Below, piece by piece: positions 16,620-59,829 of a stretch of DNA of 64,000 bases (position 1 is the first letter of the stretch; each line of letters opens with the position of its first letter). The notes under the pieces were generated by a model, which made no database searches, was not told the DNA's origin, and saw only the letters and a list, made by a program, of their open reading frames with translations. The position numbers were made by a program, and so were the translations under genes. The stretch is from Woeseia sp. (GTDB taxonomy: Bacteria > Pseudomonadota > Gammaproteobacteria > Steroidobacterales > UBA11654): assembly GCA_019653755.1 (NCBI GenBank), contig BPCL01000004.1, forward strand, positions 5,524 through 69,523. Reading direction: 5' to 3'.

Positions 16620-16703
16620 GCCGGGATGGCGGAATTGGTAGACGCGCCGGATTCAAAATCCGGTGGGGTTAAACCCGTGAGAGTTCGAGTCTCTCTCCCG
16701 GCA
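16620..16703 (+). tRNA. tRNA-Leu (anticodon CAA), long variable arm, no genomically encoded CCA
   Basis: Acceptor GCCGGGA/TCCCGGC. Anticodon stem CCGGA/TCCGG with loop TTCAAAA. T-arm GAGAG-TTCGAGT-CTCTC. Discriminator A is followed by TAATAA. Confidence 0.9.
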
Positions 16704-42275: not shown

Positions 42276-42749
42276 TTATTTCTCAGAAGTTTGATCATAG
42301 AGAAATGCTATTAGATCATTCCGGTCTTCCTGTTTCCTCATTCCTGAAAATACCATCTTATTTCCAGGTAATATTTCATAAGGCTTCTCTAACCAAAGAT
42401 CAAGATTCTCTACAGTCCAAACAATTTCACTCCCCGATAAAGCATCTGAGTAGTTGTATCCATCTCGGATACCAGCTTTTGAACCAATTAACTTAAATAA
42501 ATTAGGTCCAATCTTGTGAGGCTCATTTTCTTTCAAAGAATGGCACGCTCTGCATTGGATATAGAGTTTGCTGCCTCTCTGTATATCGCCAACTGTCATT
42601 ATCGTTTCTAGATTAGCAATACTACTAGGTGGAACAGATTCTACTTTTTCATTATCGGGGCTCTGTTGATCGCTACAAGAAATCAATAGAAAAGAAACAA
42701 TAAGTAAACTTAGATTCTTCGAGCGGATCATAAGTATGTCAATCGTCAC
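42276..42749 (-). CDS. Class I c-type cytochrome (c2/c550-like), probable lipoprotein
   Basis: Lipobox LLISCS, heme motif CRACHS, and the distal Met region GNKMVFSGM...RNDLIAFL. ATGA overlap with the upstream gene. Confidence 0.8.
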   Translation of the reverse strand: MTIDILMIRSKNLSLLIVSFLLISCSDQQSPDNEKVESVPPSSIANLETIMTVGDIQRGSKLYIQCRACHSLKENEPHKIGPNLFKLIGSKAGIRDGYNYSDALSGSEIVWTVENLDLWLEKPYEILPGNKMVFSGMRKQEDRNDLIAFLYDQTSEK

Positions 42750-43609
42750 TCATAAATAACTGGACCGGTATCTTCTTCTAAGTTAAATCCGGATAACTCT
42801 GGGTGCTCTGCCATCATTCTTTTAGAGTACTCCTCTGGCAATTGGTCGATTGAATCTAACTTAACGCCTGATGCATGCCAAAGCGTATGGCCTTCAACAT
42901 CATCCATGTCCATCCATGGCAACCAAGGCATTAACACAGTGGCTGTAAACATCGTAGATAATGAAAGGTTATTTGGGTCAAGAAATTCATCCAAAGGAGC
43001 AAACATGGTCATTCTCTGTACTCTCGGTGGACTTAATCCTGGAGGGTATGAAGTCTGATTATGCAGCCAAACCGTCTTGGGACCAAAAGTCCAATCTAGG
43101 ATTAAAGGTTTATCAGGCATTTGATCAATAAAGGATGTTGGTCTCGAACCCATAGTTGAAATATTAAGACCTCTTCCCAAACTAGCTCGTCTGATATTTG
43201 GTGACACTTTATTTACTTTGCCTGTATAAGGATTTCTGTAATCCCGTATCATTTCTCCACTATCAACATCTCTAAAAAACGTCAGCATATTCCCAAGGAT
43301 TTCATACGACCCATCATCTTGTGGAATAACCTTGTAACTCTCCATCCCTTCGATTTTGACCATGGGAATGGGTTGCTCAGATCCTTTTTGAAAATACAGC
43401 GTCCCATTGTAGTGCCAAGGGACCTGGTCTTCATTACCTAGAGTCGATTGCATTCGCATGAGGTTCAATAAATTATTCACTGGCAAAGTCAAATCGGGTG
43501 CTGAAGAAGGCACCGTTCCACTAACCATGCTCTCAGTTTTATCAGAAGCAAGAACAGTAGCTAAACCGAGACCCATTAAAAACTCTCTTCTTAATAACTT
43601 CATCGACAT
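42746..43609 (-). CDS. Tat-exported periplasmic protein, family uncertain (DUF1838-like is only a guess)
   Basis: Twin-arginine signal MSMKLLRREFLMGLGLATVLA. No cofactor motif recognised. Confidence 0.55.
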   Translation of the reverse strand: MSMKLLRREFLMGLGLATVLASDKTESMVSGTVPSSAPDLTLPVNNLLNLMRMQSTLGNEDQVPWHYNGTLYFQKGSEQPIPMVKIEGMESYKVIPQDDGSYEILGNMLTFFRDVDSGEMIRDYRNPYTGKVNKVSPNIRRASLGRGLNISTMGSRPTSFIDQMPDKPLILDWTFGPKTVWLHNQTSYPPGLSPPRVQRMTMFAPLDEFLDPNNLSLSTMFTATVLMPWLPWMDMDDVEGHTLWHASGVKLDSIDQLPEEYSKRMMAEHPELSGFNLEEDTGPVIYE

Positions 43610-43627
43610 CGTATCTCCTTATATTTC

Positions 43628-44704
43628 CTAATTAACATTCGTTGATTCTATATGGTCGGTAACCTTGTCTGCAAGGAACTCAGCCACAGCGTAATGATCT
43701 TCTGTGACCTGCCACATTGACCATGTCCCTTTATATTGATCTTGCACTGGCTGATTTGGATCAGCAGAACCAAGTTCAGCTTGATAGCCCAAATGTCCAA
43801 ATTCAGAAACGTCATAAGCTAGAGAGGGATCTAGATCATCTCGTCTCTGATCAAGCTTTGCTTGCCTAGTTGGAGGGTAGGCCTGAGAGGTGCTGCACCC
43901 TCCCATTTCGAAGCAACACTCCTCGGTTTGATTTGCATTAACAGTGCTGGCACAAGATTGAGAGACCCATATTCCCCAATAATCTGCGAAGGGGTGTCCA
44001 TATTCTGGATAAGTGTCAAAATCCAAAGAATTGAAATAAAGCCAATTCTTATAACCGATTTCCTTTCCAATCTGATTGGGAACTTCTACGAGATTAAGAA
44101 CAGAATTTTCCATGATCTGAGGAAATGCCACGACAATATGTTTAACGTTATTTTTTCTGAGTTGATCAAGCGCTTCCCAATATCGATAACCCCATTCAGC
44201 TGAAGGCCTATCTCCGTCAGTATCATGAAGGATATTGTAACCTAGGTTCTCACCCCTCATTTCACGTGTTCTTTCCATTTGTGTGAAAGCTGGAGGAGCC
44301 GGTCTAACTCTTTCATTGATGACCATGTCGCCAAACCAGCCTCCGAGAATGTTTTCTTCACTTAACTCTGGGTAATTTTCTAACAATGCCTTTTTAATAT
44401 TCTTGTTAAGGGTAAGCGTGTCATTAATTTTTGGATCAAACACTTCATTGCCCGATAAAATACCGTGATTCACCATAAGCACAGCGGTGTCCTTAATTGA
44501 AATATCTTTGTTAAATTGAGCTGCAATGCCATCGGCTTGGAATTTAGCCAACCTCATATCCTCTATAACAGGATTGGGGTAATCGGAAAATTCTACTATA
44601 GGATTAAGCTCAGGCTTACCTTTAGACCGCGTCCACCCAGAAGGGTCTTGTGGGTATGATTTCACCATCAGATTGTCAGGATCATTGACCCATTCAATAA
44701 CCAC
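43628..44704 (-). CDS. Large uncharacterised lipoprotein, C-terminal part (continuation of 44668..45432 after a frame change)
   Basis: This frame is open upstream to 44761 and reads ..NVIDEHNKTTGDNVVIEWVNDP.. across the called start. It has no start context of its own. Confidence 0.5.
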   Translation of the reverse strand: MVIEWVNDPDNLMVKSYPQDPSGWTRSKGKPELNPIVEFSDYPNPVIEDMRLAKFQADGIAAQFNKDISIKDTAVLMVNHGILSGNEVFDPKINDTLTLNKNIKKALLENYPELSEENILGGWFGDMVINERVRPAPPAFTQMERTREMRGENLGYNILHDTDGDRPSAEWGYRYWEALDQLRKNNVKHIVVAFPQIMENSVLNLVEVPNQIGKEIGYKNWLYFNSLDFDTYPEYGHPFADYWGIWVSQSCASTVNANQTEECCFEMGGCSTSQAYPPTRQAKLDQRRDDLDPSLAYDVSEFGHLGYQAELGSADPNQPVQDQYKGTWSMWQVTEDHYAVAEFLADKVTDHIESTNVN

Positions 44705-45432
44705 GTTATCCCCGGTGGTTTTGTTGTGCTCATCAATGACGTTTCTGCCGCAGTATAAACGTCAAAGGATTTTGAGAAACGAGCTCCGGCAGTCGTTAGA
44801 TCCACCATAATGAATCGCTCAACCCCCACCTTTAGGAGCCTTTCGATGGGCCCATCAATATCGTAACGATTAGGATCGCAAAATAACCAAGACCAATCCC
44901 CTTTCCCACAAAAAGCAAGTATTGAACCGTCTTCAGTTCCGGGGTAATACAACATTCTCGGATTAGCCAACTCTTTAATATCAGGGCTCAACCAAGACAT
45001 CTTATCGACAATAAAATCAATTTCGTATTGATCTTCATAATCGGTCATGATTTCAACCAAATGCTCGGTCAGTTCAGCCTTAGATTTTGGGTACGGATCA
45101 ACACCTCCGATCCGCTCATACTCAAAAGAATATTTACCCGTCTCTTTTGGTGCGTTTCCAAAAACCAAGAGTTGTGGCCAATAATCAGGATTCCATAAAA
45201 TACGCTGATAGACCGGGCTATTTTTATCGTAGGAAAATATTTGGACTGTGGAATCCCAAACCTGTTGCTCTCCATAGGTCTCAAACCCACCGTGTGAGAC
45301 ATAAAGCACCCCTACCCTTGGTCGTTGCTTGTCCTCAGGGTTGTTGGTTTGTAATTGATCCGAGTATTGAGCACAAGCTGACAAAAAGATTGTCGCCATC
45401 AAGGGTATTAAAAATTTATAGTGCCTATTCAA
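44668..45432 (-). CDS. Large uncharacterised lipoprotein, N-terminal part
   Basis: The TTG start gives MNRHYKFLIPLMATIFLSAC (lipobox LSAC). Followed by VGVLYVSHGG.... Confidence 0.55.
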   Translation of the reverse strand: MNRHYKFLIPLMATIFLSACAQYSDQLQTNNPEDKQRPRVGVLYVSHGGFETYGEQQVWDSTVQIFSYDKNSPVYQRILWNPDYWPQLLVFGNAPKETGKYSFEYERIGGVDPYPKSKAELTEHLVEIMTDYEDQYEIDFIVDKMSWLSPDIKELANPRMLYYPGTEDGSILAFCGKGDWSWLFCDPNRYDIDGPIERLLKVGVERFIMVDLTTAGARFSKSFDVYTAAETSLMSTTKPPGITWLLNGSMILTI

Positions 45433-46096
45433 TACCTAGTGCTCCTGGGTTCATTAAATTCTTTGGGTCCAAGGATTGTTTTATTGATTTCAATGCATCA
45501 GAGGCCAATGGCTGTCTGCCTTTTTGGTATGGATAGCTCTTCCCAACTTGAAAATGAACAGCCCCTAGGTCTGAATATATGTCTTGTATTGACGCTCGAA
45601 GCTCGGCAACCAGGGCTCTTCCTTCTTTATTTTCTGGGTAAGTGGGAAGCATATCAAGATACTCTTGATCCAAGTAGAGTTTGTGATAAACCGTCCGCTC
45701 ATCTTGCCAATATAGAGCTACTTCGTAGAGAAAGCTGTGTGTTGAATAGGTCATATACATAGCACCTGCATAAACTGAGCACTCTTCCATTGCATCTTTC
45801 TTCTCCTCGTAGAGATCCATCAGTCGATTGTGCATCTCCTGCATCTTTGAGAACGATAAAAGTCCGTGCATAGGCACCCAACGTTCACCTTGAGGTCCTA
45901 AGATTGGATAGAGTGGCATAAAGGGCATAGCCCCTAAAACCGTTGGAATCGTATTGGCTATCTCGGTGCCAAAAGAAGAAACGGCTTTTCTGGTTTGTGC
46001 CAGTTTACTTTTGACTTCGCTCATGGAATGGCCTTCAACGACAAAGTGAGCTGAATAATCATAACCGGTTAAGAATCTCTTGCCGGCTATGGCCAT
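45425..46096 (-). CDS. FAD-linked oxidase, C-terminal (substrate/cap domain) part
   Basis: This frame is open upstream to 46159 and reads KNARNPLEAILQLFKMAIAGKRFLTG across the called Met. The C-terminus ..LDPKNLMNPGALGI is typical of GlcD/FAD-linked oxidases. Confidence 0.7.
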   Translation of the reverse strand: MAIAGKRFLTGYDYSAHFVVEGHSMSEVKSKLAQTRKAVSSFGTEIANTIPTVLGAMPFMPLYPILGPQGERWVPMHGLLSFSKMQEMHNRLMDLYEEKKDAMEECSVYAGAMYMTYSTHSFLYEVALYWQDERTVYHKLYLDQEYLDMLPTYPENKEGRALVAELRASIQDIYSDLGAVHFQVGKSYPYQKGRQPLASDALKSIKQSLDPKNLMNPGALGIE

Positions 46097-46998
46097 TTTG
46101 AAGAGCTGAAGAATCGCTTCGAGAGGATTGCGTGCGTTCTTAAAACAGCAAAAGCCGCTTTAAAAGCGTCAGCAATTGAAGTGCTCCCAAGTTGACCCTG
46201 TTGTAATTTAGGATCCAGTCCCCAATTACTTGATACTGATTCTTCTCTTGCAGCAGCCGCCATTGCCTGACTCATGGCATCATAACTTTTAAAACCGTAA
46301 GAACAGGTAAGACTGTGACTGGGCAATTTAATTAGGCGAAGAGTAATGCTCGCCTTGATGCCCAATGACCCAGCATCACCAGAAAATAAACCGGTTAAAT
46401 CAGGGCCATAATGCCTAAAGAATGGAGTGCTTTTTTCCATTGAAGAAGAGCCAGTTTTAAGAATTTCACCGCTTGCCAAAACAACGTCATAACACAGGAC
46501 TGACTCTGGTGAACCCCCGTATCTACTGGTTCCCATGCTGACACTATTTTGCGATGTCGAGCCGCCGACGGTGGCTTTTAACCCTGAGAACGGCCCCCAA
46601 AAAGGCGTCCTCAAATTTCTCTCGGCAAGCGCTGCAGCCATTTCTGCCCAAGTAACTCCTGGTTCAACGGTGATAAACATATCCTCTTCGTTGATCTCGA
46701 TAATCTTATTGAGTCGAGAGGTATCGATGATAAGTGATTGAGCGGTAGCCGGTAGGTAAGCGTCTGTATAAGATGCCCCTCCTCCACGAGTAATAACCGC
46801 AACATCTAAACCGGTTGTAACCCTCACAGCCTCTTGAAGCTCTTCTACTGAGCCCGGTTTAATAACAGCAATTGGAGTTTCAATTGACCTGTAGACATCC
46901 ATCGAATAAAAAGCCAGCGATTCTTGATCGGTTAAGACATGATCTTTTCCAACAGCTGCCTTTAGCACTTTAACCAAGTTTTTCTCGATATCAGACAT
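46087..46998 (-). CDS. FAD-linked oxidase (PCMH-type FAD-binding domain), N-terminal part
   Basis: VIKPGSVEELQEAVRV...VAVITRGGGASY and INEEDMFITVEPGVTWAE. The ATG at 46998 has GGAG 6 nt upstream; the ORF is open to 47025. Confidence 0.8.
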   Translation of the reverse strand: MSDIEKNLVKVLKAAVGKDHVLTDQESLAFYSMDVYRSIETPIAVIKPGSVEELQEAVRVTTGLDVAVITRGGGASYTDAYLPATAQSLIIDTSRLNKIIEINEEDMFITVEPGVTWAEMAAALAERNLRTPFWGPFSGLKATVGGSTSQNSVSMGTSRYGGSPESVLCYDVVLASGEILKTGSSSMEKSTPFFRHYGPDLTGLFSGDAGSLGIKASITLRLIKLPSHSLTCSYGFKSYDAMSQAMAAAAREESVSSNWGLDPKLQQGQLGSTSIADAFKAAFAVLRTHAILSKRFFSSSKWP

Positions 46999-47006
46999 CT
47001 CTACTC

Positions 47007-48680
47007 CTAGATCTCTATTGTCCACTCGTTCCTGTTTTCAGGCAGGGGCTTAAAAATAATTCTATTGTTTATCTTTGCCATTCTACTAGCAAAAACATCT
47101 CTTAAATTGCCTTGCCATGTCAGAACAGTCAAATCCATTGAAAGATTAATTAAATCTTCCTCAAAATCATATCCTAACAAATCATTTGTCACTAGCTGCA
47201 ATCGATCTCCACCTTTTAATAATTCAATAGCTTTGTTGTGAACTGACTCAGCTTCAATATCTGGCAGTCTCCCCAATGCACTTGAAACTTGTGACTTATA
47301 CCACGGAAAATATAGTTCACTATCACGTGCAAAATACCATGCTTTGAGAAGATGTTCGCCATAGGATGTTGGGGTAATATCGGGAATATAAGACTCTTTA
47401 AATTCTTCCTTCTCTTGATCATTCAAAAACCATGGGTCCAATGCCGCCAAGCGATCAACACTTAATTCTCTGCTCTCTGCAAGTCGCAAAGCTATCGGCA
47501 AGCTGCCACCAACAGCCAGTACACTAATTCGCTCTACCTTCAGGTTTTTCAAGGCTTCCCGTATCATCCTAGCAATCGACTGCGGGGAATAATTGCTTAA
47601 ATGACTAGGCCCTGTCTCTCCATGACCAGGAAGGTCGATCATTAACTTCAATGAAGCATTCTTGATCCCTTCAGAGTATCTGCGAGAACTTTTAGACGAC
47701 TCACCAAGATCGTGCAGAACCAAAACTATATTGTCCTTGTCCTCGCCCTCCGAGCAATAATAAAGAGGACCATAGGTTGTGGGAACAAACCCTTGCTTTC
47801 CTGATTTTAAATCCACTGAAGATGAAATTTTGATCTCCCCATTGTTTGCAGAGTGTTCTTTGAATATATCTCTTGATCTTTGTTCCACAGCAATGGGGTC
47901 AGGCAGAAGCTCAATCACAACATTTTCTGGAAGATTATCAAGTCGTTTAGGGTGGTCAGCTATAGGATCTCCCTCATAATTAATCAGATAGGTCGGAATT
48001 TTCAACTGCTTGATTCGATCTCTAGACGGGTATAAAAAAGCAGCTTTATAAGCTGTTTGAGACTCTGCATTTGAACGAACTAAATCTAATACATAAGGCT
48101 GTAAAAATTCTGGCGGGGGAAGATCGAGTGCCATCCTGCTGCTTGCTTCTTTTTTAAACCAAGGAAAGAAAATCAGCTGATCTCTTATCCTTGACCAAAT
48201 CCAAGGCATTTGCCCCCCTTCAGGGGTTGGCGAAAACCATTTAGTGTAATGAGCTAATATCTCCTCTTCCTCTTCAGGTTCAAGAACCACCAAACCATTG
48301 ACAACCACCACATTGCATAGATCCGGGTATAAGCGAGCCAACTCCGTGGCTATAATTGCTCCCGTATGAAAGCCATAAAAACAAGCTTTATCTATTGCCA
48401 ATGCATCTAGGAATTCTTTCAAAGCTTCGGCGTATTCAGTTATGTCTGGTTTAATATCATCTACAAAATCAGATAACCCAAACCCGGGTGTGTCTGGAGC
48501 AATAACGGTAAATTCATCACTAAATTGCTCAATCACTGAGGCCATCTCAGCAGAAGAAGTAGGACTTTGATGCAAAAGAACCAGTATCGGTCCCGAGCCA
48601 GAAACTCGATAATGGACTTGTCGAGAGCTCAAATTTACAAACCGTCTCTCAATGGAAATATTTTCGACTGATTGATACAT
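47007..48680 (-). CDS. Cytoplasmic protein with two tandem alpha/beta-hydrolase-fold halves
   Basis: Half 1: GSGPILVLLHQSP...DTPGFGLSD...CFYGFHTGAIIA. Half 2: IVLVLHDLGESS...DLPGHGETG...SVLAVGGSLPIA. No signal peptide. Confidence 0.7.
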   Translation of the reverse strand: MYQSVENISIERRFVNLSSRQVHYRVSGSGPILVLLHQSPTSSAEMASVIEQFSDEFTVIAPDTPGFGLSDFVDDIKPDITEYAEALKEFLDALAIDKACFYGFHTGAIIATELARLYPDLCNVVVVNGLVVLEPEEEEEILAHYTKWFSPTPEGGQMPWIWSRIRDQLIFFPWFKKEASSRMALDLPPPEFLQPYVLDLVRSNAESQTAYKAAFLYPSRDRIKQLKIPTYLINYEGDPIADHPKRLDNLPENVVIELLPDPIAVEQRSRDIFKEHSANNGEIKISSSVDLKSGKQGFVPTTYGPLYYCSEGEDKDNIVLVLHDLGESSKSSRRYSEGIKNASLKLMIDLPGHGETGPSHLSNYSPQSIARMIREALKNLKVERISVLAVGGSLPIALRLAESRELSVDRLAALDPWFLNDQEKEEFKESYIPDITPTSYGEHLLKAWYFARDSELYFPWYKSQVSSALGRLPDIEAESVHNKAIELLKGGDRLQLVTNDLLGYDFEEDLINLSMDLTVLTWQGNLRDVFASRMAKINNRIIFKPLPENRNEWTIEI

Positions 48681-48732: not shown

Positions 48733-50850
48733 TCAAAACTCGTATCTGACAATTAGGCCCATGTGTCTAGGATCTCCCTGACGCTCAAACAAGGTGGCGG
48801 GGAAATCAGGAGGAACATTCCCAAAATAGAATCCACGGAGTGAAAAATATTCATCAAAAATATTCCTGACCCAAAATTCGTATTTCCATTGATCTCGTTG
48901 ATAACCGAGAACTATATTTCCGAGCGTGTATGCGGATGATTTATTATTATGAGAATCAGAGTAATAAAAGCTACTCTTGCCGTTAATACCCATACTTAAA
49001 TAGATGTCATCAGTGACAAACCATTTCATGCCCGCTGCATAAGAGGTTCTGGGTGCATGAGCTTGGTCTCTGCCTTCCAAGGTAATGTTAGACCCGTGCT
49101 CAGTAACTTTTGTTCTTAACAGGCCAACGGATGCGTACATACTCAGTTGATCGCTCGGATTTGATTTTACAGTCATCTCAAGACCATAATTCTTTCCGCT
49201 GGCAGCGTTCTGTGTCAAAAAAGTAAAGGTGTTGGGATCGCCAGGATCTACTTGGGTTGAAGCCATAACCTGTTGATCTTTTCGGTCAGAGTAAAAAATG
49301 ACCATATCGATCCCAGTGTTTGACTCTGAGAATTGATGATTGACTCCAATCTCATAATTCCATAAGTATTCCGGCTCATAAACAAGGGTGTCATTGAATG
49401 ACTCAATCGATAAACCCGTGCCTAAATTGAACCCTCCTGATTTAAAACCCCTGCCAATACTTGCATAAATATTAGTGCTCTGATCCCATTGATTGATTAG
49501 AGATACCTTGCCGCCAAACATCTGATCACTCGGTGAGAAAGACTCACCAAATGTGTCTGAATAATCGGCCTCCCAGTCCTCCCATCGCAAGCCAAAACTC
49601 AGTCTCATGGATGGGGAGAGCGAATAGTCAAAACTCCCAAAAATAGCTTTATTCTCTGACGCATAATCTCTGGTCGCAGACACATCCTTAAAATAGGGAG
49701 GCCAGGGACTAAATGGGTCGATATAAGTGCCGAGATCTCTAATATCATTGCGCTCATTCAGTTTTAGATAATAAGCTCCAATCACCCAGGCAAAATCATC
49801 GTCTAATGTCTTATCTAGAGGCTCAGATAAGACTCTGAATTCCTGATTAAAAGATCGCCTTGAACGCTGTGTTTCAGAAAAGAAATCATAAGTATAAGGA
49901 CTGTTGGAGTCAGGATTACCCCAATCAGCATCGTAACTGACTGTAACATCGGAATTAGTGGCACTGGTTAAGCTTTGAACAATAGCATTTGTGGCTTGAT
50001 GATTGATCTTTAAGCCATAAGCTCTGGTGTCTTGAGAATCTAATCCTGGCTTATCAGATAGTGTGTTCAAACTGCCATCGATGTTCCAAGTATCCGATGA
50101 GGCATCAAAATCAGAGTTGAGTAAAAGAAAACTCAAATCTGTTATTTCACTTAATTGCCAATTTAGCTTTAAACGTCCTGTAAGTTCTTCTTTGCCTGTG
50201 GTGTCATCACGATTAAGGTATAGATTTTTTCTAAAGCCGTCGGTCTCATCTTGTCGCAATGACACTCTGTATTTAATGGCTGTGTTACCCTCAAAAGGAC
50301 CGCCAAAAGCTAAGCCAATATTTCGTATACCATCGCTTCCCAGGGTTAATTCAGATAATCCTTCGAAGGAGTCAGACGGTTCTTTAGATCGCATGTAGAT
50401 CATGCCAGCTAGAGCATTCGCACCCATTCTAGAGCCCTGAGGTCCGCGATGTACCTCGACTTGTTCCATGTCAAAACTACTAGCAACCCCACCTTGACCG
50501 GAGAAATCAATATCATCAATTATGAATCCCACAGAGCTATTCGGTGTGCCTTCATACCCTGATCGTTCTCCAATGCCTCTTATTTGAAAGTATCGTGGCC
50601 TGCCATCACTAACTGCCATATTAAGATTAGGCACAAGAAACGTCAGTTCTTCAAAATGTTTCATTGGTTGATCTTGTAATTGTTTTTCCTCAAGCAGCAA
50701 CAGACTACCGTCATTTTCTTCAAGTAGAGTTTCCCGGTAGTTGGCTTTAACTATAATTTCCTCAATACTGTCTGCAATTACAGGGGCTGCAAAGAGTGAT
50801 GCTGTATAAATTAATAGGACTGAAAAGAGTCGAAATGATAGATTGGTCAT
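48733..50850 (-). CDS. TonB-dependent outer-membrane receptor
   Basis: Signal peptide, TonB box IEEIIVKA, plug domain (HRGPQGSRMGANALAGMIYM), a 22-strand-type barrel, and C-terminal ..LIVRYEF. Confidence 0.92.
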   Translation of the reverse strand: MTNLSFRLFSVLLIYTASLFAAPVIADSIEEIIVKANYRETLLEENDGSLLLLEEKQLQDQPMKHFEELTFLVPNLNMAVSDGRPRYFQIRGIGERSGYEGTPNSSVGFIIDDIDFSGQGGVASSFDMEQVEVHRGPQGSRMGANALAGMIYMRSKEPSDSFEGLSELTLGSDGIRNIGLAFGGPFEGNTAIKYRVSLRQDETDGFRKNLYLNRDDTTGKEELTGRLKLNWQLSEITDLSFLLLNSDFDASSDTWNIDGSLNTLSDKPGLDSQDTRAYGLKINHQATNAIVQSLTSATNSDVTVSYDADWGNPDSNSPYTYDFFSETQRSRRSFNQEFRVLSEPLDKTLDDDFAWVIGAYYLKLNERNDIRDLGTYIDPFSPWPPYFKDVSATRDYASENKAIFGSFDYSLSPSMRLSFGLRWEDWEADYSDTFGESFSPSDQMFGGKVSLINQWDQSTNIYASIGRGFKSGGFNLGTGLSIESFNDTLVYEPEYLWNYEIGVNHQFSESNTGIDMVIFYSDRKDQQVMASTQVDPGDPNTFTFLTQNAASGKNYGLEMTVKSNPSDQLSMYASVGLLRTKVTEHGSNITLEGRDQAHAPRTSYAAGMKWFVTDDIYLSMGINGKSSFYYSDSHNNKSSAYTLGNIVLGYQRDQWKYEFWVRNIFDEYFSLRGFYFGNVPPDFPATLFERQGDPRHMGLIVRYEF

Positions 50851-50932
50851 GGTATTCCTCCGCCATAATTATATGGATCAGGTTCTAAGGGTTTCCTTAA
50901 GAATCTCAGGCGTTTCAGCCACCCCTTACCTT
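50851..50932 (-). promoter_or_regulatory. TPP (thiamine pyrophosphate, THI-box) riboswitch
   Basis: The reverse complement reads GGUAAGGGGUGGCUGAAACGCCUGAGAUUCUUAAGGAAACCCUUAGAACCUGAUCCAUAUAAUUAUGGCGGAGGAAUACC, followed by AUG. All conserved THI-element blocks are present in the correct order. Confidence 0.9.
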
Positions 50933-51001
50933 GCTGTCATCATAGTATAATTGCCTAAGTTTTGCTAATGTTGTGATTTATTTTAGAAACTCTAATAACA
51001 G

Positions 51002-59752: not shown

Positions 59753-59829
59753 GCGCCCGTAGCTCAGCTGGATAGAGCGTGTGGCTACGAACCACAAGGT
59801 CGGGAGTTCGAATCTCTCCGGGCGCGCCA
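59753..59829 (+). tRNA. tRNA-Arg (anticodon ACG) with encoded CCA
   Basis: Acceptor GCGCCCG/CGGGCGC. D-loop AGCTCAGCTGGATAGAGC. Anticodon stem TGTGG/CCACA with loop CTACGAA. T-arm GGGAG-TTCGAAT-CTCTC. Ends G-CCA. Confidence 0.92.

Follow-up and report, generated by a model that had tools for sequence, protein, structure and literature searches.

A TPP riboswitch aptamer with an embedded ribosome-binding site abuts the start codon of a putative thiamine receptor gene in an uncultured marine bacterium

In the window, the whole 64-kb stretch of DNA from an uncultured marine bacterium that was analyzed here, the gene of a TonB-dependent receptor directly follows a TPP riboswitch aptamer, and the ribosome-binding site of this gene lies inside the aptamer: the GGAGG overlaps the 3′ strand of P4 and the AUG comes after P1. 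We read this arrangement as a TPP-sensing OFF riboswitch that would directly occlude translation initiation of the receptor with no separate expression platform, the cargo being most likely thiamine, and we give this reading a probability of about 0.75. It builds on the identity of the aptamer, the conservation of its structure, its abutment on the start codon, a substitution that creates the Shine-Dalgarno (SD) sequence and the association with thiamine transport genes. The aptamer belongs to the 5′ leader of the receptor gene, and in relatives the orthologous receptor shares an operon with pnuT and a ThiK-like kinase.

Searching the window with cmscan and Rfam 15 returned a single riboswitch match in the 64 kb, RF00059 (TPP) at 50936..50838 on the minus strand, with 58.9 bits, above the gathering score of 54.3, and E = 5.3e-9. 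The alignment spans the full model (positions 1-105). The parts of the leader are as follows:
50838..50936, minus strand: TPP riboswitch aptamer (RF00059 match by cmscan), with the structural core from P1 to P1′ at 50930-50851
50927..50930, minus strand: P1 5′ strand GGUA (Rfam alignment, alignment A1 of related leaders, covariation)
50904..50909, minus strand: CUGAGA block, at invariant consensus positions and invariant in A1
50857..50882, minus strand: pyrophosphate-sensing P4/P5 arm, CCUG-AU-CCAU-loop-AUGG-CG-GAGG (Rfam alignment, covariation)
50857..50861, minus strand: Shine-Dalgarno GGAGG, 6 nt 5′ of the AUG, its AGG being the P4 3′ strand
50851..50854, minus strand: P1 3′ strand UACC, with the start codon next (sequence, Rfam alignment, covariation)

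A TPP (THI-box) riboswitch had been proposed at this site by a sequence-only reading, together with a cmsearch-type check against RF00059, and the proposal is borne out by the match and by covariation in relatives. That reading gave the RNA exactly as it stands on the minus strand at 50932-50851, but its start takes in two surplus A residues; the true extent is 50930-50851, or 80 nt. It had also placed the AUG directly after the aptamer, and the ATG at 50850-50848 indeed follows the last P1 base with zero spacer. The order of conserved blocks that it listed could be confirmed as well, since GGGGUG, the GGC/GCC hairpin, CUGAGA, ACCCUU.GAACCUGAUC, the CCAU/AUGG hairpin, GCGGAGGAA and the GGUA/UACC pairing all occupy the expected positions of the RF00059 model. 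The CUGAGA block forms the pyrimidine-sensing junction of TPP aptamers in the published thiM structures. The conserved blocks of the sensor arms (GGGGUG, CUGAGA, ACCC, GAACCUGAUC and GGCG.AGG.A) match the consensus save for a u to G and a G to A change in the last of them, and they are invariant across the 34 relatives in A1. These two departures from the RF00059 consensus turn CG-u-AGG into CG-G-AGG and AGGGA into AGGAA. By the former, G50860 stands in place of the consensus U and the closing pair atop P4 becomes a G.G mismatch, which cmscan marks as non-canonical.

The window aptamer exceeds the Rfam gathering score by only 4.6 bits and scores 96.4 bits with the clade covariance model R1. 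Sister copies lie close to the Rfam threshold: the one at L001:9918-10004 is unreported at threshold (93 bits with the clade model), and those at L086:2301-2399 and L089:1775-1874 reach 53.6 and 54.3 bits. Because sister copies score at or under the gathering threshold, part of the clade is missed by standard Rfam annotation.

The distribution of the aptamer was followed with the receptor protein, which was searched against one-genome-per-species contigs and gave 80 loci. Most of these, with receptors 50-70% identical, belong to the SAR86 cluster and further uncultured Gammaproteobacteria of marine origin; the receptors on two MAG contigs that bear the label Woeseia are 94-98% identical, and distant relatives (25-44%) were found in Steroidobacteraceae, Thalassotalea, Pseudocolwellia and Verrucomicrobia. 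With clade model R1, exactly one aptamer per locus was detected in 74 of the 80, on the same strand and just upstream of the receptor, including about 20 SAR86 leaders that a regex survey had overlooked. The six loci without aptamer are devoid of upstream sequence or merely 25-29% identical. Across the several phyla spanned by the 74 loci, the aptamer always sits at the orthologous receptor gene. Three matches of an exact 20-mer scan (L161-L163) have no aptamer upstream and were set aside as chance hits, about one being expected in 596 Gb. Some labels in this set call for caution. The SAR86-like receptor/pnuT contigs L007, L119 and L134 come from MAGs labelled Candidatus Nitromaritima, Methanobacteriota archaeon and Pelagibacterales, and are probably mis-binned, and the "Woeseia" label of the nearest relatives of the window, which itself has a GC content of 40%, may merit checking.

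In A1, an alignment of 34 leaders with a structure derived from Rfam, 90.4% of the cells hold standard pairs, compared with 32-54% in a control in which the 3′ partners were slid. Six pairs, in P1, P3 and P5, show changes on both sides. Compensatory changes occur at three of the five P1 pairs and two compensatory variants were seen in P5, while P2 and P4 are uninformative on covariation because they are invariant; pair 65-84, which closes P4, is G.G in 34 of 34 sequences. The P1 helix GGUA/UACC of the window, which the sequence-only reading had identified correctly, covaries with (U)GCAA/UUGC(A) in most SAR86 leaders and with GUAA/UUAC in another subgroup. In most SAR86 leaders the fifth P1 pair can use the A of the AUG.

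The substitution in the last conserved block is the one that yields the ribosome-binding site: G for U in CG-U-AGG makes a GGAGG Shine-Dalgarno out of the P4 3′ strand. Between the AGG and the AUG stand only AA and the four bases of the P1 3′ strand. For the 74 loci, the spacing from the conserved CGNAGGRA 3′ block to the start codon was measured, and the base at the substituted position was compared between the resulting groups:
Start codon at most 7 nt from the CGNAGGRA block (usually exactly 4): 53 loci, with 52 G, 1 A and 0 U
Spacer of at least 24 nt: 19 loci, with 15 U (the consensus) and 4 G
AUA at the start position: 2 loci, with G

The usual distance of 4 nt corresponds to the P1 3′ strand. 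That the ribosome-binding site lies within the conserved 3′ block, as had been suggested from the window alone, is thus matched by an SD-creating G in 52/53 abutting loci versus 4/19 long-spacer loci; three of these four long-spacer G loci have a second aptamer 3′ end abutting the start codon. The loci behind this association are not phylogenetically independent, and it recurs in GC-rich lineages in which the receptor is only 36-44% identical (L050, L063, L071, L077). In the window, SD-like motifs precede genes more often than expected (36% versus 14% background), which makes it likely that the GGAGG is in use.

Several leaders depart from the common layout. In L002:9786-9962, and also in L003 and L021, an 87-nt spacer after the aptamer terminates in a second copy of its 3′ end (AAUGGCGGAGG-UGUACC-AUG), which abuts the real start; the distal UGUAC is a better pairing partner for the P1 5′ strand (GUGCA) than its proximal counterpart. 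Such a leader may be an expression platform born of a partial duplication. For the L002-type duplicated leader the fold was non-significant (z = -0.78), and the three copies, at 99% identity, are too alike for covariation to show. In L004-L007 (for example L004:9985-9995) the sole in-frame start AUG comes 1 nt past the GGAGG and shares bases with the aptamer GGGA, a distance too short for normal SD spacing. Finally, two independent MAGs (L010:1890-1940 and L039:8240-8290) have AUA and then AUU at the receptor start position, 6 nt from the GGAGG. The next in-frame TTG there falls within the hydrophobic core of the signal peptide, and an out-of-frame AUG-GAA-UAA mini-ORF overlaps. The AUA may serve as a non-canonical start codon.

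Upstream of the aptamer, a consensus scan revealed a promoter-like site of the sigma-70 type:
50939..50968, minus strand: -35 TTAGCA (50968-50963), 18-nt spacer, -10 TATGAT (50944-50939)

In the window, the -10-like TATGAT stops 8 nt short of P1; among 43 distinct related leaders, 42 likewise have a TAnnnT box, the end of which lies 2-12 nt (in most cases 6-12) before P1. On the basis of this conserved spacing, transcription is predicted to start at about 50932-50930, on the first P1 bases. The 5′ end of the mRNA, as judged from the promoter, would then probably lie at P1 or at most 2 nt from it, and the leader of about 80 nt would probably consist of essentially the aptamer alone. A scan for terminator-like sites found no transcription terminator near the leader. 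Folding gave no statistically significant alternative fold of the leader that could act as an alternative-pairing platform, although pairing partners may exist in the coding region or, if transcription starts farther upstream than predicted, 5′ of P1.

Nearest-neighbor estimates attribute about -3.2 kcal/mol to P4 and about -2.2 kcal/mol to P1, both weaker than the -9.5 kcal/mol predicted for the SD:anti-SD duplex, so that the 30S subunit should be able to open both helices without ligand. At low TPP, the 30S subunit would melt P1 and P4, which are weak helices of 4 bp and of 3 bp plus the G.G pair, respectively, and receptor synthesis would proceed. Bound TPP would bridge the P2/P3 and P4/P5 arms and shut P1; the SD and the AUG flank would then be held in the folded aptamer and initiation would be stopped by direct occlusion. 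In the published thiM structures, the pyrophosphate of TPP is bound in the internal loop that joins P4 to P5, and the ligand would therefore directly stabilize the helix that holds the SD. The G.G pair adjoins this pocket. Two-dimensional predictions show the AGG of the SD as mostly paired in the apo ensemble (probability of being unpaired 0.05-0.15), so the ON state rests on an assumed 30S invasion of the 3-bp P4. A thermodynamic OFF switch is the most likely type, and the mRNA level may drop secondarily via Rho or decay after the loss of translation. Translational control, also favored by the sequence-only reading, is the best reading for this RNA, whose ligand binding, transcription start, occlusion step and cargo we infer from sequence and comparison.

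Main control could instead be exerted on the RNA level, by Rho termination or decay within the receptor gene or by effects on RNA polymerase, the embedding of the SD being incidental to genome compaction. Such control would agree with the partial pairing of the SD in the apo state, with the roughly 3-fold drop of OMthi-pnuT mRNA upon thiamine addition in B. uniformis (bioRxiv 10.1101/867226) and with the dual translational/Rho control known for E. coli TPP switches (PMC10907184). However, the leader has no intrinsic terminator nearby, a Rho effect normally comes after a translation block and does not replace it, and the tight tie between the SD-creating G and abutting starts points to selection on the initiation site, which makes this alternative quite unlikely.

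A shift in aptamer specificity (for example to thiamine, TMP or HMP-PP) through the G.G at the P4 closing pair appears very unlikely, given that all other strongly conserved positions are kept, including CUGAGA, ACCUGAUC and the CG bulge, and that both sensor arms are present, unlike in the truncated HMP-PP variant. TPP-like variants with altered ligands do exist (the HMP-PP thiS motif), and both the G.G shared by all 34 aligned clade sequences and the AGGAA in place of AGGGA could be taken to speak for such a shift, but the canonical U in long-spacer orthologous leaders suggests one ligand across the family. The modest excess over the gathering threshold might further be ascribed to a chance match or to a decayed relic with no regulatory role; this is effectively refuted by E = 5e-9, by the compensatory changes and the conservation over 74 loci, and by the presence of the identical aptamer on independent metagenome contigs. 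Direct occlusion of translation initiation by the TPP-bound aptamer remains the preferred reading.

Seawater contains little thiamine, a vitamin that SAR86 and most other bacterioplankton are unable to make. The omr1 family is among the most expressed B1-uptake markers; we know of no case in which its substrate and regulation were tested in marine lineages. The gene under the riboswitch of the window is:
48733..50850, minus strand: TonB-dependent outer-membrane receptor of 705 aa, putative thiamine receptor of the omr1/OMthi type (Pfam; start codon 50850-50848)

Its assignment to the TonB-dependent receptors, already made by the sequence-only reading, agrees with the Pfam domains Plug (48-149) and TonB_dep_Rec_b-barrel (243-664). 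The N-terminus is signal-peptide-like (MTNLSFRLFSVLLIYTASLFAAPVIA/DS), and the protein has a TonB-box-like EEIIV and a C-terminal Phe. The exact protein is found on 12 marine metagenome contigs. NCBIfam places it in a generic siderophore-receptor subfamily, under the cutoff, and a PDB sequence search returned the FyuA plug as its sole relative, which was uninformative.

More can be learned from the receptor neighbors, which were defined by clustering the ORFs of all loci. The gene after the receptor encodes a Pnu-family carrier (PF04973) in 63 loci, about 50 of which show an intergenic distance of -13 to +15 nt, and an APH-family kinase follows in 37 loci; with the ThiK model TIGR02721 this kinase reaches 66 bits, far under the cutoff of 299 bits. 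In these relatives, TonB-driven entry would be followed by facilitated diffusion through PnuT and by a phosphorylation that traps the vitamin, a route that matches PnuT biochemistry and Bacteroides genetics. The earlier statement that cargo and downstream handling are mostly unknown is therefore outdated: PnuT, usually with the APH/ThiK-like kinase, stands next to the receptor in related operons, and Bacteroides OMthi/pnuT have been genetically tested (PMC5613172; bioRxiv 10.1101/867226).

The receptor most likely imports thiamine. A cargo other than intact thiamine, be it a precursor or degradation product (HMP, AmMP, FAMP, thiazole) or phosphorylated thiamine, is unlikely but deserves consideration, as the specificity and substrate of omr1 are called unclear in the field (PMC12442306) and B1 vitamers are used by marine bacteria (PMC10881298, PMC10470507). 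The low score of the co-operonic kinase and the lack of an informative relative with a solved structure would fit such a cargo too. Against it stand the Pnu-family carrier as the next gene in 63 loci, together with the finding that characterized PnuT binds thiamine and not TMP or TPP (PMC5749112), the absence from SAR86 genomes of the thiamine pathway that precursor use requires (PMC3358033), and the roughly 10-fold higher thiamine requirement of Bacteroides OMthi mutants (PMC5613172).

The window and its nearest relative L001 differ from this operon in that pnuT and the kinase are absent downstream of the receptor, so that the three genes do not cluster here; no PnuT or kinase homolog was found anywhere in the 64-kb window. 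In the MAG that holds L001, pnuT and the kinase lie on a separate contig, L086. There, a second promoter and aptamer (53.6 bits with Rfam) and the first eight receptor codons stand directly upstream of pnuT (L086:2268-3830). The mini-ORF, MTGLMFRF and a stop, ends 12 nt before the pnuT ATG, and the L001 receptor leader and the L086 pnuT leader are identical over about 165 nt. A like arrangement is seen in L159:6340-7916 and L127 (single-cell genome AG-435-A22), with a diverged 9-codon leader, MNSISIRFI*. In both cases the mini-ORF cassette sits 9-12 nt upstream of pnuT and the APH-family kinase, and an Amidohydro_2 gene adjoins the pnuT-kinase cassette. Since AG-435-A22 is independent and has the same arrangement with a diverged mini-ORF, that of L086 is not an assembly artefact. 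With a second copy preceding pnuT in sister genomes, we attribute the split of the ancestral operon to duplication of the promoter-aptamer-SD-AUG cassette. Judged from gene order, downstream handling is by PnuT and the kinase, which in the lineage of the window appear to have moved under a second riboswitch copy; the genome of the window probably has this copy outside the 64 kb. Through the remnant mini-ORF, pnuT may be coupled to initiation under TPP control.

Taken together, these loci lead us to lean slightly towards a wider proposal. The TPP class, commonly regarded as the textbook case of strand exchange, would also exist in a direct-occlusion form without platform, widespread among SAR86-like marine Gammaproteobacteria. 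In it, one U to G change at the P4 closing pair would make the GGAGG, the start codon would abut or enter P1 and transcription would begin at P1, so that the aptamer of about 80 nt would be the whole 5′ UTR and the binding of the ligand would in itself occlude the ribosome site. The promoter-aptamer-SD-AUG cassette would also be a portable module, duplicated in the lineage of the window with 8-9 receptor codons (now the leader mini-ORF) for separate TPP control of pnuT and the kinase.

The genes that follow the receptor in the window form a cluster of their own:
42276-48680, minus strand: gene cluster 3′ of the receptor, encoding a 557-aa double alpha/beta-hydrolase, an FAD-linked oxidase, two unknowns, a DUF1838 protein and a cytochrome c

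The two proteins without family match have 254 and 358 aa. The gap between receptor and hydrolase is 52 nt. With a perfect TATAAT (48699-48694) 13 nt ahead of its start codon and no SD, the hydrolase gene may give a near-leaderless mRNA. We considered whether the cluster could be a new TPP-regulated pathway (for example thiamine salvage or oxidation) and rejected this: it is syntenic in L001 and same-species metagenome contigs only, is absent from the other 70+ loci, and its hydrolase has a TATAAT of its own. Because of this restricted synteny, the cluster is not part of the conserved riboswitch unit. The FAD-linked (VAO-type) oxidase at 45425-47025 on the minus strand is split into ORFs of 312 and 223 aa with a junction near 46136, owing to a 1-nt deletion with respect to L001 (AAGAAC-GCAC versus AAGAACAGCAC). 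On other metagenome contigs with the identical receptor it is intact, as one ORF of 524-533 aa; the split oxidase is either a strain-specific pseudogene or a sequencing error. Rfam further detected two tRNA genes in the window:
16620-16703, plus strand: tRNA gene
59753-59826, plus strand: tRNA gene, with identical sequence in L001

The pairing of gene and riboswitch described here is known. The association of the TPP riboswitch with omr1 (OMthi) and pnuT, translational control and duplication of the riboswitch on operon splitting are already published, and the locus leaves the knowledge of TPP riboswitches and thiamine uptake genes unchanged. It is a tidy, very compact case of the known pairing, and its architecture is a modest mechanistic nuance: in the literature we found no description of an SD made from the P4 strand by U to G with the AUG abutting P1. 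The minimal 80-nt RNA with its embedded ribosome site offers a model for three-way-junction gating without expression platform, and so compact a riboswitch could serve as a synthetic biology part.

The THI element was linked with omr1 receptors and pnuT by Rodionov et al. 2002, as cited in PMC5749112. In SAR86 MAGs, a TDP riboswitch next to omr1 has been reported (PMC10881298), and SAR86 is thiamine-auxotrophic and without thiamine synthesis (PMC3358033). These SAR86 and other proteobacterial omr1 loci share with the window the gene-riboswitch association and the setting of thiamine-auxotrophic bacterioplankton, and many of the genomes, SAR86 SAGs and MAGs, are the same (PMC10881298; PMC12442306). 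The omr1 papers treat omr1 as a marker gene, and we found in them no account of the leader architecture or of the operon split in the lineage of the window.

Bacteroides OMthi (BT2390) and pnuT-tnr3 resemble the relatives of the window locus in having a TPP riboswitch and a receptor-pnuT-kinase operon (PMC5613172; bioRxiv 10.1101/867226). In B. thetaiotaomicron, TPP riboswitches immediately 5′ of the OMthi and pnuT starts repress translation (bioRxiv 10.1101/867226), and OMthi and PnuT are required for growth at low thiamine (PMC5613172). Translational repression by thiamine is thus reported for Bacteroides OMthi/pnuT, whereas for the receptor of the window we infer it. The Bacteroides system belongs to another phylum, and its kinase is the pyrophosphokinase Tnr3, compared with the APH/ThiK-like kinase in the relatives of the window. 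Bacteroidetes are, moreover, largely without SD-led initiation, whereas the window has a canonical GGAGG within P4.

E. coli thiM and thiC share with the window locus the aptamer class, the OFF direction and, as proposed here, the control of translation initiation. They have a separate platform with an exchanged anti-SD strand (PMC10907184), whereas no platform was found in the window, and the P4 position that is U in thiM is G in the window aptamer. A 2024 review accordingly puts the TPP class in the "strand exchange" and not the "direct occlusion" group (PMC10907184). In the latter, SAM-II, SAM-V, SAM-III and preQ1-I/II have the ribosome-binding site within the ligand-stabilized aptamer, so that the aptamer is the platform, as proposed here, and direct-occlusion riboswitches are common in streamlined marine genomes (PMC10907184). 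SAM-II, SAM-V, SAM-III and preQ1 are unrelated to the TPP riboswitch in fold and ligand, and in the latter the SD lies not in a pseudoknot but in P4, a peripheral helix of the three-way junction that the TPP aptamer forms.
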